Origin: Longimicrobiales bacterium
Lineage (GTDB): Bacteria; Gemmatimonadota; Gemmatimonadetes; Longimicrobiales; Gaopeijiaceae
Length of the DNA: 64,000 bases
Assembly (NCBI GenBank): GCA_041690395.1
Contig: JAWLHJ010000006.1
Coordinates: 6,530 to 70,529 of the forward strand
Direction of reading: 5' to 3'
Part shown: one piece after another, positions 1 to 52,937 of the stretch
Layout of the letters: each line of letters opens with the position of its first letter
How positions within the stretch are numbered: the first letter of the stretch is position 1
Made by a program: the position numbers and the translations under genes
The notes under the pieces: model-generated
Database searches by the model: none
Seen by the model: the letters and a program-made list of their open reading frames with translations, nothing else
What the model was told of the DNA's origin: nothing

Positions 1-2314
1 CGCCCGAGCACGCCGGCGTGCCCCCGGCGGCGGCGTCGAGGCCGGCCTCGACGCCCCACGCCTTCATCTGCCCGATGTTGTCGAGCTGGGTCGAGCGGAA
101 GCCTCCGGACGGCGCGAACTGCCGGTCCACGAGGAGGTCGTCGACGGTGCGGTTCCAGTAGGTGACCTCGAGACCCACCCGGTCATCGACCAGACCGACC
201 TCGGCTCCGACCTCCCACTCCGTGCTGACCTCCGGCCGGAGATCGGGATTGCCGAGGTTCGACGGCACGACGCCGGCACCGCTCTCGGATGCGAGCGGAC
301 TGAAGGTGGTGAGGCGGTCGAAGGCGCCGGGCTGTAGTCCTGACTGGCCGATGGCCGCCCGCACCCGGAACGACGACAGGCCGAGCGGCCGGTCCCAACT
401 CCGCCAGTCACTGGGCACGACGGAGAGGCTCGCCTTCGGATAGAACGCCCACCCCGTCTGTTCGGCGAAGGCACTGTGGCGGTCGTAGCGCCCGCCGAGG
501 GTGAGGAACGCCCAGTCGCCGAAGCCGAGTTGGCCCTGCGCGAAGACGCCACCGCTCACCTCGGCCAGGCGGGACTCGGTGAGGGTCTGGGCGGCGCCCG
601 CACCGGCCACGTCGAGCCCCGGGCCGCTGAAGTTCTCGCCGGTGCCGCCGAGCTCCCGCGTCTCGGCCCGCACCTGCTGCGCGCCGACGACCACCGAGGC
701 CGTCCAGGCCTCGGACAACGTCCTCGACCAACTCGACTTCAGGTCCACCGTCACGCGCCGCCGGTTCCGGTCGCTCACCCGCCGCTCACCGGTCGGGTCC
801 TGCTGCGAGACGCCGTCCACGTTCCATCCGAAGGGGATCGTGTGGCTGTCCTGCTGGCCGACCACGTCCAGCCCGACGGTCGCGTCGAAGGACAGCGCGT
901 CGATTGGCGTGTAGGTCGCGGACAAGCTTCCACCGAAGCGCCGTACGTCCTGCTCGCTGAAGCGGTGCAGGACCTCTCGCACGGTCGTGAACACCGGGTC
1001 ACCCGTCGGGTTCGTCTCGCTCGCGAGCTCCGGCTTGCTACGGATGACCGACGTCGTCGGCCCGAGCGTGTTGTTGTTGTTGTTCGGAATGCTCAGGTAG
1101 CTCTCGGTATAGAGCGAGGTCACCCGGAGCTGCAGATCATCGGCGGGCACGAACGACAGGTTGGCGTCGAATTGCCGCTTCCTGCCGATGTCCTCGGCAC
1201 GGGGCAGGCCGTAATCCCGCTTGAGGTAGCCGTCGCTCGTGAACGGGCCGTTCTCGCCCTGGACGCGCCCCGACACGTAGTAGGTCACGGCGTCGTTCCC
1301 GCCGGATACCGAGAGGGTCGTGCTGGTGCTCCGACCCGTCTCGAACAGCCTGGGCACGAGGTCGACCTCGAACACCTCCCATGGCCGGATGTCCTGGCCG
1401 AAGAACGCGCCCAGCTCGTCGGCCCGCTCCTGCGTGCGCGCGAAGCCTGCGTGAGGCCGGTACCGCCCCTCGGGATACCTGGAGAAGCCCTGCTCGACGT
1501 CGAGGTTCCAGCGGGTCTGGCCCGCGGTGCCGCGCTTCGTGAAGATCTGGATGACGCCGTTGGACGCCTCGGTTCCGTACAGCGTGGCGGCGGCGGCGCC
1601 CTTCAGGATCTCGACGCGCTCGATGGACGCCGGGTTGATGTCGTCGAGCCGCGACGGCGATCCGCCGCCTCCGCCGACGTTGCCGCTGAAACCGCCGCCG
1701 TTGTCGATGCGGACGCCGTCCACGTAGACGATGGGCTCGTTCGACTGGGACAGGCTCCCTGTTCCGCGAATGCGGATGCGGGCGCCCTCGCCGACGAGTC
1801 CGCCGGACGGCAGCCCCACAACGCCCGGATCGCGACCGAGCAGCGCCTCCGAGACGGTCGTGATCGGAGCCCGCTCGAGCGCCCGCCGGTCGATGGTCGA
1901 GACGGTGTTGCCGAGCTTCCGGCGCTCGGTGGCCACGCCGGTCCCCGTCACCACGATCTCGTCGAGCGCGATGGCGGACGAGCCGAGCGAGAAGTCGGCC
2001 CGGACGGTCTCACCGGCGACGATCTCGACCGTGCGCGACTCCGAGCCGAAGCCGAGGCTCTCGACCCGCAGCTCGACGGGGCCGACGGGTAGCCCGTCGA
2101 GGAGAAAGGTGCCGTCCCGGCTGGTCAGCACCCCGCGCTCGAGAGCCGGGGCGTAGATCTGGACGGAGGGCAAGGCGCGGAGCACGCCCGCCTCGCGGAC
2201 GGAGCCGCCTACGGCGCCGGTGTCCTGGCCGGCGAGAGCGCCGGCCGAAAGCGTGGACGCGAGGGTGAGGCCGACGGCCGCCGCCGCGCGTCGTAGTGTG
2301 GTCGATGTCGACAT
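1..2314 (-). CDS. SusC/RagA-like TonB-dependent outer-membrane receptor (3' part runs off the window)
   Basis: Manual translation from ATG at 2314: signal peptide MSTSTTLRRAAAAVGLTLAS..., N-terminal carboxypeptidase-like domain, TonB-box-like LDEIVVTGTG, plug motifs IRIRGTGS, EPIVYVDGVR, DINPASIERVEILKGAAAATLYGTEASNGVIQIFTKRG. Absent from the ORF track because it has no stop in the window. Confidence 0.93.
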   Translation of the reverse strand, partial: MSTSTTLRRAAAAVGLTLASTLSAGALAGQDTGAVGGSVREAGVLRALPSVQIYAPALERGVLTSRDGTFLLDGLPVGPVELRVESLGFGSESRTVEIVAGETVRADFSLGSSAIALDEIVVTGTGVATERRKLGNTVSTIDRRALERAPITTVSEALLGRDPGVVGLPSGGLVGEGARIRIRGTGSLSQSNEPIVYVDGVRIDNGGGFSGNVGGGGGSPSRLDDINPASIERVEILKGAAAATLYGTEASNGVIQIFTKRGTAGQTRWNLDVEQGFSRYPEGRYRPHAGFARTQERADELGAFFGQDIRPWEVFEVDLVPRLFETGRSTSTTLSVSGGNDAVTYYVSGRVQGENGPFTSDGYLKRDYGLPRAEDIGRKRQFDANLSFVPADDLQLRVTSLYTESYLSIPNNNNNTLGPTTSVIRSKPELASETNPTGDPVFTTVREVLHRFSEQDVRRFGGSLSATYTPIDALSFDATVGLDVVGQQDSHTIPFGWNVDGVSQQDPTGERRVSDRNRRRVTVDLKSSWSRTLSEAWTASVVVGAQQVRAETRELGGTGENFSGPGLDVAGAGAAQTLTESRLAEVSGGVFAQGQLGFGDWAFLTLGGRYDRHSAFAEQTGWAFYPKASLSVVPSDWRSWDRPLGLSSFRVRAAIGQSGLQPGAFDRLTTFSPLASESGAGVVPSNLGNPDLRPEVSTEWEVGAEVGLVDDRVGLEVTYWNRTVDDLLVDRQFAPSGGFRSTQLDNIGQMKAWGVEAGLDAAAGGTPACSG

Positions 2315-2410: not shown

Positions 2411-2446
2411 GAAAAAAGGCCCCCTCTCCGCAGCGGAGAGGGGGCC
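2411..2446 (-). terminator. Intrinsic terminator (attenuator 3:4 hairpin) in the receptor leader
   Basis: Minus strand GGCCCCCTCTCCG-CTG-CGGAGAGGGGGCC-TTTTTT: perfect 13-bp stem plus U6, ~100 nt upstream of the receptor start. Confidence 0.9.
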
Positions 2447-2476
2447 GGTCGGGCTCCGTGATCTCGGTCGGTCACA

Positions 2477-2560
2477 TCATGACGATGTCCACGCGCGAGC
2501 ACGCCCGTCCGCCTCTCCGAGTGGAGAGCCGCACCGACACATGCAGCAGCACATCATCAT
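2477..2560 (-). CDS. Met/Cys-rich leader peptide MMMCCCMCRCGSPLGEADGRARAWTSS (alternative in-frame ATG at 2608)
   Basis: ATG ATG ATG TGC TGC TGC ATG TGT CGG TGC gives 4 Met + 5 Cys in 10 codons. It lies between a SAM riboswitch and an intrinsic terminator and overlaps an alternative hairpin. Confidence 0.72.
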   Translation of the reverse strand: MMMCCCMCRCGSPLGEADGRARAWTSS

Positions 2561-2615
2561 GGTGGACCCGATCACGCAGGTTACTCGCTTTTTCGATCCG
2601 TGGATCATGGGCAAC

Positions 2616-2651
2616 AAAAAAGCCCCTCGGCGACATTCCGCCTGGGGGCTT
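2616..2651 (-). terminator. Intrinsic terminator of the SAM riboswitch expression platform
   Basis: Minus strand AAGCCCC-CAGGCG-GAATGT-CGCCGA-GGGGCTT-TTTT directly after the aptamer. Confidence 0.82.
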
Positions 2652-2656
2652 GCCAG

Positions 2657-2708
2657 GGCGGATTTAGCAGTTGGTAACGCGGATGCAATCGCCACAAATC
2701 GCCGCGGA
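2657..2708 (-). ncRNA. SAM-II (SAM-alpha)-type riboswitch aptamer
   Basis: Minus strand UCCGCGGC-GAUUUG-UGGCGA-UUGCA-UCCGCG-UUACCAACU-GCUAAA-UCCGCC: P1 CGCGG/CCGCG, conserved GAUUU, UUGCA and GCUAAA blocks, pseudoknot GGCG/CGCC. Confidence 0.83.
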
Positions 2709-2714
2709 GCGAAG

Positions 2715-2743
2715 ACGCTAGTCGAAGCCTTCGGAGGTGTCAA
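2715..2743 (-). promoter_or_regulatory. Sigma70-type promoter for the riboswitch/receptor transcript
   Basis: TTGACA (2743-2738), 17-bp spacer, TAGCGT (2720-2715). The predicted start (~2708) coincides with the 5' end of the aptamer. Confidence 0.75.
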
Positions 2744-4272
2744 CCGCGGGGCGGCATGACTCCGGTAGCGGGAAGCTGGATTCGGAAGCGCGTGCCGTCC
2801 CCCGGCTCGCTCATCACGTCGATCTCTCCACCGAGCTGCGTCACGATGCCGTACACGGTCGCGAGTCCGAGCCCGGTGCCCCGCCCTTCCGCCTTCGTGG
2901 TGAAGAAGGGCTCGAAGATGCGCGTGCGGGTGGGCTCGTCCATCCCGGAACCCGTGTCCTCGACCTCGATCAAGACCCTCCGCCCCCTATCGCCGTTCGA
3001 TGCAGGCTCCCTGGACTCGGCCACCCGGCCGGCGTCGGGATGCCCCGATGACGGCACGCGCGTCCGGAACGTGAGCCGTCCCGGTCCCTCCATGGCGTCC
3101 CGCGCGTTGATCGCCAGATTCATGAGCACCTGCCGAATCTGACCCGGATCGGCCTCGACCAGCGGCAGGCGGGGCTCGAGCTCCGTCTCGACCCTTATGG
3201 ATCCGCCCAGGGTGCGCGAGAGGAGTCCGGACATCCCGCGGATAATCTCGTTGAGGTCCACCGGCTCCAGGTGCAGGTGATTGGGCGTCGCTCGGCTGAA
3301 GGTGAGCATCTGAGCCGCGACGTCGGCCGCCTGCCGGGCCGCCTCCCGGATGGCTTCCGCGTCGTCCCGGTGCGGAGAGCGCTCCTCGAGATCCGCCAGG
3401 AGCAGGTCGGCGTGCGCCAGGATGACCGTCAGGACGTTGTTGAAGTCATGCGCGACGCCGCCGGCCAGCCGGCCGATAGCTTCCATCTTCTGGGTCTGTT
3501 GAAGCGTCTCCTCTAGGTGCCGCTGATCGGTGACGTCTGAGAAGACCTCCAGAACTCCGTCGAACGCACCGTCCGGCGTACGAAGGGAGACCGTGGCCGA
3601 CGAGAGGAGGACGATCCGCCCGTCGGGCCGCATGTAGCGGCGGTCGGCCCGGTCGATGTCGCCGGCATGTGCCCGGGCGACGCACGACGCGAGCCATGTC
3701 TGCACGGCCGAAAGGTGACGGTCTGTGCGGTACGCGCCGTCGATGCCGAGGATCTCCAGCGCCGACCGGTTGAGGAAGCGCGCGTCGCCGTCCGGCGAGA
3801 GCACGGCGATACCGACGGGACTCGCCTCGAGGATCTCGGCCTTAAGCGTCCGTTCGCGCTCGAGCTCGAGCTCCACGAGCCGTCGTAGGCCCCGCTCGGA
3901 CGCCCTCCCGACGGTCTCCAGCAGCGACGGCGGATGGACCGGCTTCACCAGGTAGTCGACGGTCTCCGCCCGCACCGCGCCGATCGCCGACTCGACCGAC
4001 GCCTGGCCCGTGAGCATGATGACCTGCGTGCCGCAGCCGGAGTCGTGCAGCGCCTGCGCGATGGACAGCCCGGAAATGTCCGGCAGGCCGATGTCGACGA
4101 GCGCCACAAGAGGTGGGTCCGGACGGTCGAGCACGGCTTCGAGCGCGGCGCGTCCCTCGCTCGCGGTCACGACCTCGTAGCCTCTCAGCTCGAGAATGTC
4201 CCCCAGGGTGCGGAGGAACGACGAATCGTCGTCCACGACGAGCACCTTCACCCGCTCCTTCACATTAGTCAT
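2740..4272 (-). CDS. Hybrid sensor kinase (REC-PAS-HisKA-HATPase)
   Basis: N-terminal REC (VLVVDDD...ALVDIGLP), PAS, H-box GGVAHDFNN, N-box MNLAINARDAM, G-boxes DTGSGM and FFTTK...GTGLGL. Confidence 0.93.
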   Translation of the reverse strand: MTNVKERVKVLVVDDDSSFLRTLGDILELRGYEVVTASEGRAALEAVLDRPDPPLVALVDIGLPDISGLSIAQALHDSGCGTQVIMLTGQASVESAIGAVRAETVDYLVKPVHPPSLLETVGRASERGLRRLVELELERERTLKAEILEASPVGIAVLSPDGDARFLNRSALEILGIDGAYRTDRHLSAVQTWLASCVARAHAGDIDRADRRYMRPDGRIVLLSSATVSLRTPDGAFDGVLEVFSDVTDQRHLEETLQQTQKMEAIGRLAGGVAHDFNNVLTVILAHADLLLADLEERSPHRDDAEAIREAARQAADVAAQMLTFSRATPNHLHLEPVDLNEIIRGMSGLLSRTLGGSIRVETELEPRLPLVEADPGQIRQVLMNLAINARDAMEGPGRLTFRTRVPSSGHPDAGRVAESREPASNGDRGRRVLIEVEDTGSGMDEPTRTRIFEPFFTTKAEGRGTGLGLATVYGIVTQLGGEIDVMSEPGDGTRFRIQLPATGVMPPRG

Positions 4273-4984
4273 CGGCATCGAGCGCCTCGAGCAGGTCGGA
4301 TACCGCGAACGGTTTGTGGAGGCTGGCCTTCACCCAGGGAACGTCGAAGTCGGTCCTCGCGCGCCTGAGCACCTGCTCGTATCCGCTGAAGAAAACGAAG
4401 GCGGCGGTGGGGCTGGCACGACGGATGGCCACGATCGCGGCGTTGGGCTCGGTTCCGGGAAGCACCATGTCGAGCAGTACGGCGGCCACTCCGTTCGTCT
4501 CGAGCGCGCTCAGGGCCTGGTCCACCGACCGGGCCCTGAGCACCTCGTACCCGGATCTCTCCACGGCCTCGGCGAGCGTCGTGAGGAAGTCCGGGTCGTC
4601 GTCGACGACCAACACGCGCTTCGGGCGGTCGACCAACGAGCCCAGAAGGCGCACGACCTCGGTCGGGTCGAGGGGCTTCGCGAGGACGGCGACGGCCCCG
4701 GCCCTCACCGCTTCCTCCAGGAGCGACGAGGCCGAATACGCCGTCATGAGCACGACCTTCACGTCGGGGCGGAGCTCTCGCAGCGCACGCAGCGCATCGA
4801 CACCGTTCAAGCCGCTCATCTTGATGTCCATGAGAACGACGCCGGGACCGCCGGACCGCGCCACGGCGAGCGCCTCCTCTCCGGAGTACGCACGCTCGGG
4901 GGTCCACCCTTCGAGCTCCAGGATGTCGCAGAGCGTGTCGACCATCGCCCGGTCGTCGTCCACCACGAGGATGCGCCGGCTCAC
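4265..4984 (-). CDS. Response regulator with two tandem receiver domains
   Basis: RILVVDDD...MDIKM...KP followed by a second VLVVDDD...LDMVL...KP. GTG start overlaps the upstream stop (GTGA). Confidence 0.88.
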   Translation of the reverse strand: MSRRILVVDDDRAMVDTLCDILELEGWTPERAYSGEEALAVARSGGPGVVLMDIKMSGLNGVDALRALRELRPDVKVVLMTAYSASSLLEEAVRAGAVAVLAKPLDPTEVVRLLGSLVDRPKRVLVVDDDPDFLTTLAEAVERSGYEVLRARSVDQALSALETNGVAAVLLDMVLPGTEPNAAIVAIRRASPTAAFVFFSGYEQVLRRARTDFDVPWVKASLHKPFAVSDLLEALDADD

Positions 4985-48941: not shown

Positions 48942-49015
48942 TGCGCCCGGCTGGATTCGAACCAGCGACCTCATGCTCCGGAGGCATGCGCTCTATCCAA
49001 CTGAGCTACGGGCGC
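48942..49015 (-). tRNA. tRNA-Arg (CCG)
   Basis: GCGCCCG-TA-GCTC-AGTTGGATA-GAGC-G-CATGC-CTCCGGA-GCATG-AGGTC-GCTGG-TTCGAAT-CCAGC-CGGGCGC-A cloverleaf; CCA not encoded. Confidence 0.98.
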
Positions 49016-52439: not shown

Positions 52440-52571
52440 CCTCCCCTCCAGTCTCGGTTGTCTGCCCATACTTCGTTCGCAGATGGGTGACATGAGGACG
52501 CGATTCATATGACGCGCCGGGGGTGGACATGCTTCGGCGCCCGCCGCGGTATCGCGGACGGGCGCCGAATG

Positions 52572-52937
<366 letters not shown>

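Follow-up and report, generated by a model that had tools for sequence, protein, structure and literature searches.

The 64,000-nucleotide (nt) stretch of Longimicrobiales DNA analysed here (hereafter the window; positions 6530-70529 of contig C6, JAWLHJ010000006.1, in a genome of 4.33 Mb) carries a long minus-strand leader in front of a susC/susD gene pair. From sequence comparison and folding models we consider it probable that this leader is a real, conserved two-stage switch, a SAM-II riboswitch for S-adenosylmethionine (SAM) followed by a leader-peptide attenuator, and that susC/susD would be transcribed only if both SAM and Cys-tRNA are in short supply. A serial gate with two inputs, low SAM and scarce tRNA, had been proposed in an earlier note on this DNA, and it is supported by conservation, covariation and the sulfur-gene context of the relatives. 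The promoter, the aptamer, the first terminator (T1), the upstream open reading frame (uORF), the second terminator (T2) and the receptor ATG all lie where that note had placed them on the minus strand. The leader elements are as follows:

2715..2743 (-), putative sigma70-type promoter: TTGACA 2743-2738, 17-nt spacer, TAGCGT 2720-2715; predicted start about 2708
2657..2706 (-), SAM-II aptamer: helix P1 2706-2702/2682-2678; third strand 2700-2696
(-), pseudoknot helices of the aptamer: P2 2688-2684/2669-2664; P2a 2693-2690/2660-2657
2637..2662 (-), antiterminator of T1 predicted by folding: 2662-2653 pairs with 2645-2637 and takes P2a's 3' strand
2616..2649 (-), terminator T1, serving as the riboswitch's expression platform: stem 2649-2622, U tract 2621-2616
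2477..2560 (-), leader ORF (MMMCCCMCRC...): 27 codons from ATG 2560, stop TGA 2479-2477, control codons 2560-2531
2531..2539 (-), modelled sensing codons Cys8-Arg9-Cys10: in ribosome-walk folding, a stall here frees region 2
2509..2530 (-), attenuator regions 1 (2530-2523) and 2 (2518-2509): they form the 1:2 hairpin; T2's 5' strand is an alternative partner of region 2
2412..2446 (-), terminator T2 (regions 3:4): stem 2446-2418, 13 base pairs (bp), -29.2 kcal/mol; six-U tract 2417-2412

In the proposed mechanism, SAM would close the pseudoknot including P2a, the strand that pairs with T1 would thereby be withdrawn, and transcription would terminate near 2616; without SAM, polymerase would continue past T1. 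At the second stage, a ribosome that does not stall would clear the leader ORF and cover region 2, T2 would fold and transcription would end near 2412. With a stall at Cys8-Cys10, the ribosome would cover region 1 only and region 2 would bind T2's 5' strand while the matching 3' strand had yet to be synthesized, so that polymerase would enter susC. The two serial terminators would give a NOR-like output, and in the relatives short Met-tRNA would also count as second signal. This output would be a sulfur-cheap outer-membrane importer for scavenging in sulfur shortage, with peptides or organosulfur compounds as our guess at the substrate.

Recurrence of the tandem among Gemmatimonadota

The core pattern of the aptamer was found in 70 of 401 genomes of the order (2 matches in the reversed control) and in 106 of 401 genomes of the phylum (5 in the control). 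A subset of the matches listed, 163 distinct ones, was taken, and 150 of these had a P1 of at least 5 bp and sufficient flank; the 13 dropped for P1 or length include the real tandems L036 and L066. At least five Met/Cys within ten codons were present 3' of 16 of the 150 aptamers, compared with 2 of 150 antisense, none of 149 upstream stretches and, among 3,000 random windows, 9. Weaker or filtered cases were added after inspection, as were six loci with variant aptamers found from the T2 side. The resulting tandem set has 29 loci in 28 genomes, 20 genera and four families; without the window, 28 loci in 27 Gemmatimonadota genomes remain. Both aptamer subtypes are contained in it. One tandem locus (L068, genome G127) stems from an unpublished genome and is counted in the 22-locus statistics below; two further loci (L071 in G037, L013 in G056) are counted among the aptamer-only copies and homologues.

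The genes behind these tandems, for the most part connected with Met, Cys or sulfur, are metY-metX, hom (homoserine dehydrogenase), metX, aspartate kinase, panB, ferredoxin-cysI-cysH-rhodanese, rhodanese, a thrC-like gene with MoaD and MoeB, and a RimK-like ligase with an SfnG-like monooxygenase. The argument of the earlier note that both modules point to sulfur amino acids is supported by the relatives, many of which have each module conserved, covarying and 5' of sulfur genes.

Some arrangements resemble parts of the tandem. L070 (912-1261, minus strand) may be a tandem in decay: a SAM-II aptamer with T1 precedes a RimK-like gene there, the second hairpin is shortened and a Met/Cys run is missing. 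Five loci ahead of metX/metY-type genes (L081, L085, L086, L087, L089) have SAM-II and T1 and, about 100 nt further on, another terminator-like hairpin, but lack Met/Cys codons. Stand-alone Met/Cys attenuators lie between the end of metK and metY in seven loci (L248, L250, L253, L256, L257, L259, L260), and in L241 and L249 a terminator alone remains after metK. As metK stands behind SAM-II in the same genus (L073-L079), loss of the metK in between may be one origin of the tandem.

The aptamer and its terminator

Covariation supports the aptamer fold. At two pairs of P1, which has 5 bp in the window, 10 G-C/C-G and 15 C-G/U-A double changes were counted in 40 aligned copies; double changes occur at 3 of the 5 pairs, kinship being uncorrected. 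P2 is 97% paired. The invariant core (U-rich third strand, bulged SAM-pairing U at 2666, A tract) is kept at the locus in this 40-sequence alignment (A3), an invariance that is partly by construction, as the sequences were chosen on the pattern. A 4-bp P2a is readable in the window, T1 follows directly 3' and there is no P3, which fits SAM-II rather than SAM-V. A T1 hairpin with a U-rich tail is present at 138 of 149 aptamer loci. In the window fold, P2a's 3' strand has a second partner in the 5' half of T1; such sharing is what a transcriptional OFF switch would be expected to show, according to the available portions of PMC1273637 and PMC6061858. Met/SAM genes stand behind relatives of the aptamer (metH, metK, metY, metX, hom), and aptamer-only copies lie 5' of metH, metK, thrC-like pyridoxal phosphate enzymes and panB.

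The earlier note had suggested a check against the Rfam models SAM_alpha and SAM_V. At gathering level Rfam gave no matches in the leader. In an E-value scan, SAM_alpha (RF00521) did match and the long-loop SAM-II model reached 23.7 bits, while SAM_V was absent from the 11 matches with E<=10; T-box was likewise absent from them, so that the locus did not qualify as a T-box riboswitch. The locus aptamer is the top of three matches in its own genome. A model built from 39 other loci, with the locus sequence excluded (R1), gave it 63.8 bits (E 5.5e-16), and five tandem-locus relatives pass the RF00521 cut-off themselves (L092 with 52.0, L095 with 46.9, L099 with 42.6, L065 with 40.9 and L098 with 36.3 bits).

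As to the first stage, the following speaks against the proposed switch. Firstly, the SAM_alpha score at the locus (27.3 bits, E 3.5e-4) is below the Rfam cut-off of 36. Secondly, P2a is just 67.5% paired in an unguided alignment of the 40 copies, because its registers vary among aptamer subtypes. Thirdly, the -35 box lies about 10 nt nearer to the aptamer than in the modal spacing. Lastly, the ligand-free fold hinges on the 5' end: from 2713 the leader is antiterminated by 2.7 kcal/mol, and from 2708 the probability of T1 is 0.93 (the 'bound' state was modelled simply by deleting the aptamer). Given this sensitivity, we infer stage 1 from family and layout, not from energies.

As a side observation, many SAM-II copies, mostly of family f1, precede genes unrelated to sulfur (AAA ATPase, SNF2 helicase, WD40, AsmA, hypothetical), as if on mobile DNA (L035, L039, L041, L042, L045, L046, L051, L053, L054, L057, L058, L060, L088, L093, L101, L102).

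The leader ORF and the attenuator

The leader ORF has nine Met/Cys in ten codons. Not one of 3,000 random 230-nt windows exceeds six, and ATG-led runs of at least five Met/Cys codons occur twice in the whole genome. The Met/Cys run of the predicted uORF beginning MMMCCCMCRC is therefore present beyond chance, while its start codon is uncertain. The frame is open 5' of 2560, with in-frame alternative starts at GTG 2575, ATG 2608, TTG 2614 and TTG 2617, so a start at 'MMM' is not established. The strongest pairing with the anti-Shine-Dalgarno sequence at the locus belongs to TTG 2617/2614 (-7.2), followed by ATG 2608 (-4.7). Speculatively, as the ribosome-binding pairing of TTG 2617/2614 uses the 3' strand of T1, it would be free only in the read-through state.

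The geometry is shared among 22 tandem loci, a set that leaves out L066. The best start lies 5-13 codons 5' of the control codons in 18 of the 22; the distance from the last control codon to the stop is 48-66 nt in 21; region 2 starts 10-16 nt past the last control codon in 17; and stop to T2 measures 21-39 nt in all 22. At the locus itself, the intrinsic terminator T2 follows the ORF. Mutually exclusive 1:2, 2:3 and 3:4 helices, placed so that a stall would free region 2, were found in the folding models.

A ribosome was walked along the leader in a model in which its footprint is masked, the RNA is folded as far as the T2 loop and the energy needed to open T2's 5' strand is computed. With the last control codon occupied, the median cost over the 22 loci was 16.2 kcal/mol, compared with 6.9 for free RNA, 5.8 five codons later and 3.6 at the stop, and this peak was stable over footprints of 9-17 nt. 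In the locus copy, stalls at Cys8-Arg9-Cys10 gave 11-16 kcal/mol at footprint 13 and stalls at Met1-Met7 gave 5-9; Met7 joins the T2-blocking stalls at footprints of at least 15 nt. Since only these stalls are modelled to block T2, the second input at the locus is likely to be mainly Cys-tRNA. The earlier proposal of Met/Cys-tRNA as second input is thereby refined, the modelled sensing codons being Cys8-Arg9-Cys10 and not MMMCCC.

Regions 2 and 3 also change together. In L094, L097 and L178, changes in region 2 are mirrored in region 3 and the cognate partner ranks first; overall, cognate 2:3 pairing beats swapped partners by a residual of -2.38 kcal/mol (permutation p 5e-5, with related loci not independent).

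Doubts about the second stage arise from initiation and from the 2:3 helix. Neither 2560 nor 2575 has a clear ribosome-binding site nearby. In just 11 of the 22 loci is the 2:3 duplex better than shuffles (p<=0.05), with p 0.047 at the locus and values as high as 0.80 (L036) and 0.72 (L098). Moreover, T2 dominates at equilibrium despite a stalled ribosome, with a probability of 0.98 at the locus and over 0.85 in 20 of the 22 loci, so antitermination must be kinetic. As equilibrium folding did not switch, the opening energy at the time of T2-loop synthesis was used instead.

The attenuator scaffold with other codons

The strongest test started from structure and not from codons. A search with the T2 hairpin only matched 51 of 401 genomes, with no match in the control, and 46 loci were read. 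Seven of them carry a Leu-rich uORF before leuA (L221-L225, L228, L229), on the same RNA scaffold; 35 are Met/Cys-rich, three are plain terminators and one, L227, has the scaffold before chorismate mutase with an unclear uORF and no obvious control codons. In a peak test, the switch position was predicted from structure alone. Among the three codons that end there, Leu occurs in 7 of 7 leuA leaders, none of which has Met/Cys at this place, and Met/Cys occurs in 32 of 33 other leaders at footprint 13 (28 of 33 at 10, 33 of 33 at 16). It weakens this test that its frames were picked for Met/Cys or Leu richness and that 5 of the 46 loci were left out (L234, L237, L239, L241, L249); the result thus bears on the position of the codons and not on their presence. 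Altogether, Leu codons before leuA and Met/Cys codons elsewhere, i.e. one scaffold with pathway-matched codons, is the behaviour of classical tRNA-sensing attenuators, and the comparison argues for such attenuation here.

This pattern bears on the nature of the sensor. The leader peptide could instead be a sequence-specific arrest peptide or a thiol or metal sensor, responding to SAM, redox state or metal rather than reading tRNA charging. Arg recurs in the control codons (18 of about 190 in the 22 loci) and Arg9 sits at the modelled peak; Cys-rich peptides can bind metals, and plant CGS1 provides a SAM-dependent arrest peptide. However, Met and Cys interchange freely, both Cys codons are in use (36 TGC and 17 TGT), the same scaffold has Leu codons before leuA, and the tail of the peptide follows the RNA helix with no residue motif. 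We therefore regard a peptide-specific sensor as very unlikely.

It is still less credible that the Met/Cys run and the hairpins arose by chance from the high GC content of the intergenic region, a reading to which we give next to no weight. Alternating ATG/TGC repeats are indeed near-palindromic, and 4-5 Met/Cys appear antisense at 11 of the 150 loci; but recurrence at 29 loci in four families, the fixed spacing and the codon-pathway match already contradict a chance origin.

Of the 35 Met/Cys-rich loci, 8 have the aptamer and 27 lack the aptamer pattern, seven of these 27 being blank with model R1 too. Each part thus suffices elsewhere, as most aptamers in turn have no uORF, and it is conceivable that only one stage is active here: the attenuator would work and the sub-threshold aptamer with T1 would be a leaky constitutive relic, or the reverse. 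The aptamer score under the Rfam cut-off, the ambiguous stage-1 fold and the likeness of L070 to a tandem that lost its control codons all point in that direction. On the other hand, the locus retains every invariant core position of the 40-sequence alignment, its R1 score exceeds those of seven other real copies (54-60 bits), and antiterminator and T1 are intact. Also, no TTGAC, and thus no sign of an internal promoter between the two switches, lies between aptamer and control codons in any of the 22 tandem loci. A single active stage is in our view very unlikely, and the two-stage switch remains the preferred explanation.

In the genome of the window itself, two further Met/Cys attenuators were found, both without an aptamer. 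One (L350, C1:597396, minus strand) precedes a RimK-like ATP-grasp gene and an SfnG-like monooxygenase, the other (L349, C1:871337, plus strand) an SDF-family symporter, for which a cystine transporter is a guess. A His-rich leader peptide with a terminator before hisG (L352, C2:747086, plus strand) represents a classical His attenuator in Gemmatimonadota. In two other genomes, Met/Cys attenuators precede SusC genes of other subfamilies (L226, L230).

The receptor and its possible role in sulfur sparing

The end of T2 lies about 100 nt 5' of the receptor ATG. The genes that the leader would control are:

2..2314 (-), SusC/RagA-type TonB-dependent receptor, depleted in Met/Cys: ATG 2314; extends past the window to C6:5593
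C6:5577-4243, downstream of susC, SusD-like lipoprotein: 53% identical to a protein with a Pfam SusD match

The receptor has the SusC N-terminal extension, plug and barrel (Pfam domains) besides its SusD partner; TIGR04056 gave 324 bits for a 771-residue part, against a cut-off of 368 set for the whole protein. Just before the window start, a 10-N scaffold gap (C6:6520-6529) lies inside susC, and a few codons at its edge look unreliable; a 94% identical full-length protein exists, which suggests an assembly gap rather than a broken gene.

There are 2 Met+Cys in the 1,038 residues of the receptor, its one Cys being at the edge of the assembly gap. The content is 1.26-2.35% in ten paralogues and 1.37% (median) in 90 more distant homologues, and the depletion is significant against the latter value (binomial p 7e-5). 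Among 560 long ORFs, taken with a rough ORF filter, the receptor ranks fourth lowest. In a quick-search tree with Shimodaira-Hasegawa-like approximate likelihood ratio (SH-aLRT) support only, the receptor groups with proteins that likewise have little Met+Cys (clade of 13, 1-7 each, support 100), the sister clade having 6-23. Relative to the distant homologues, Met stands at 0.19 and Cys at 0, with every other residue at 0.73 or above. The SusD-like partner has no Met and 2 Cys in 405 residues. This depletion does not depend on the RNA evidence and agrees with sulfur sparing; the match of codons and pathway at the locus appears to hold on this ground, and not by a known substrate. Searching the genome by tblastn with cysI, cysH and metX queries gave no match, which makes scavenging plausible.

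Conservation around the receptor itself is less favourable to the proposed gate. The leader of aptamer and uORF was found on no homologous receptor, neither at 29 relative loci and 2 paralogues nor at 89 loci of a genome and metagenome scan, and it is absent from the nine closest family homologues, which are sulfur-normal (0.88-2.07% Met+Cys). The homologues checked reach about 61% identity at most; together with the normal sulfur content of the closest nine, this means that conservation on true orthologues is neither supported nor refuted. Members of the sulfur-poor clade were found in none of the 401 class and 314 family genomes, and solved structures gave just distant SusC/RagA matches, with no hint of a substrate.

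What the receptor is for can also be read differently. With the regulation as proposed, it may be a sulfur-cheap stand-in that takes up the same general substrate as its paralogue C5 (53% identical). C5 is richer in sulfur (11 Met and 2 Cys), the nine closest homologues are sulfur-normal and leaderless, the SusC/SusD pair has no adjoining sulfur-specific gene, and sulfur-poor isoenzymes under limitation are described in the available part of PMC8557817. The same part describes sulfur-acquisition proteins that are themselves sulfur-poor; the missing cysI/cysH/metX matches speak for scavenging; and the SusC genes of L226 and L230, which have Met/Cys attenuators, are only mildly depleted (1.23% and 0.87%). 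A stand-in role is a serious possibility, which we hold to be somewhat short of an even chance. It touches the output alone and is compatible with the switch.

Taking the two-stage switch and its relatives together, it seems to us about as probable as not that Gemmatimonadota have a sulfur regulon built on modular, ribosome-read Met/Cys attenuators, either alone or behind SAM-II as a two-input gate that couples a metabolite aptamer to the speed of translation, and that the gate in the window deploys a dedicated sulfur-depleted SusC/SusD clade, which would be an outer-membrane response for sparing sulfur under RNA-only control.

Comparison with known systems

The closest known logic is found in SAM-I/T-box(Met) tandems before metX/metY, of which nine examples are predicted in the available part of PMC9481103 (Sherlock et al. 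2022). These and the T-box(Met)/SAM-I tandems share with our leader the inputs of SAM and tRNA charging, two platforms per leader and metX/metY targets. Unlike them, the leader here has a SAM-II sensor, the tRNA would be sensed by a ribosome on a leader ORF, with Cys besides Met, and the phylum is different. In the SAM-II/SAM-V and double SAM-II tandems of the same paper, SAM-II with a terminator likewise comes first in a sulfur-gene leader, but there the second element senses the same ligand, whereas here it would sense tRNA charging. The words 'uORF', 'leader peptide' and 'attenuat' occur 0 times in PMC9481103.

In the case of SAM-II itself (RF00521/RF01726), the available portions of Corbino 2005 (PMC1273637) and of Huang and Lilley 2018 (PMC6061858) describe the same P1 and pseudoknot, a promoter a few nt 5', a downstream intrinsic terminator and a 4-bp, G-C-rich P2a. 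The locus aptamer differs in being under the gathering threshold, of a Gemmatimonadota subtype and followed by a second switch. For Sinorhizobium meliloti metA, an unexplained terminator behind the SAM-II switch is mentioned in the available text of PMC9373788. That of PMC2965389 does not describe a pairing of SAM-II with a leader peptide.

Classical attenuators of the hisL type, as far as the accessible part of PMC4046918 goes, share the control codons, the 1:2, 2:3 and 3:4 helices and the U-tailed terminator; there, too, the effect of a stall depends on codon position, His5 being critical. A predicted Cys attenuator, uORFC-8-2 before cysS, has Cys control codons and a terminator (PMC8632094, in part). 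Unlike both, the leader in the window mixes Met with Cys among its control codons and is preceded by a riboswitch. For the thr leaders of Pasteurellales, Met codons were reportedly noted by Vitreschak in 2004, which our search did not confirm.

The polycysteine leaderless short ORFs of mycobacteria resemble it in Cys-codon stalling and in serving several sulfur operons per genome; in the portions available, these act on a downstream ribosome-binding site without terminators, in contrast to the T2 terminator here (10.1101/834739; PMC1262725). The Salmonella mgtA and mgtCBR leaders combine a Pro-codon uORF with a second sensor (a Mg2+-responsive leader; an ATP attenuator), but according to the accessible part of PMC3641672 they have neither intrinsic terminators nor a defined metabolite aptamer, and their signals are unrelated.

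In the main texts of the open-access literature, we found neither a SAM-II riboswitch with a leader-peptide attenuator nor a classical Met/Cys attenuator. The earlier note had called the architecture undescribed; this stands for the parts and their combination, while the logic is known from SAM-I/T-box(Met). What is new is therefore the combination of two known kinds of switch, its parts and not its logic. Catalogues of tandem switches pair covariance-model hits, so a riboswitch with a leader-peptide attenuator is invisible to them. The tandem is common in nature and offers many variants for testing, and it would add a methionine/cysteine attenuator to the classical ones. One leader could distinguish a lack of methyl donor from a limitation of translation by sulfur amino acids. 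The switches would also help to annotate orphan transporters and enzymes of a little-studied phylum (SusC/SusD pairs, the SDF symporter, the RimK-like ligase with the SfnG-like monooxygenase) as sulfur-starvation genes. As a Leu version of the scaffold exists in nature, the mechanism is directly testable by codon swap.

Upstream context and further observations

The gene upstream of the leader is:

2740..4278 (-), hybrid histidine kinase (REC-PAS-HisKA-HATPase)

Its stop codon shares bases with the -35 box, and there is no terminator between it and the leader. Neither promoter nor T1 was called at the locus by a promoter scanner, and the -10 box has three of six consensus matches. Across the family, 57 of 149 loci have TTGAC 35-65 nt 5' of the aptamer core, compared with 4 of 149 in a control stretch. 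As the frame is open from 2743 onward, translational coupling from the kinase through the aptamer was considered and rejected as a general feature, because open frames in 7 of 22 loci equal the chance expectation.

Elsewhere in the window, a class A RNase P RNA (52568-52937, minus strand) and a tRNA with anticodon CCG (48942-49015, minus strand) were seen.

Other tandem RNA arrangements were also met. Another conserved RNA motif, which has a hairpin of its own, lies 3' of SAM-II and T1 at 11 loci, in many cases ahead of metK (L045:1291-1413, minus strand; L051, L052, L057, L060, L073, L077, L078, L102, L120:1102-1223 and L241). It gave no Rfam match at E<=0.5 in the five loci scanned, and its pattern is absent from the genome of the window. 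With its long invariant stretches and covarying 5' helix, this motif is a candidate riboswitch in tandem. Finally, SAM-II is followed by SAM-I in one leader at L049 (1627-1734, plus strand), L050 (1312-1414, minus strand) and L093 (362-491, plus strand), with scores of 65.3 and 64.6 bits, over the cut-off, and of 27 bits in L093.

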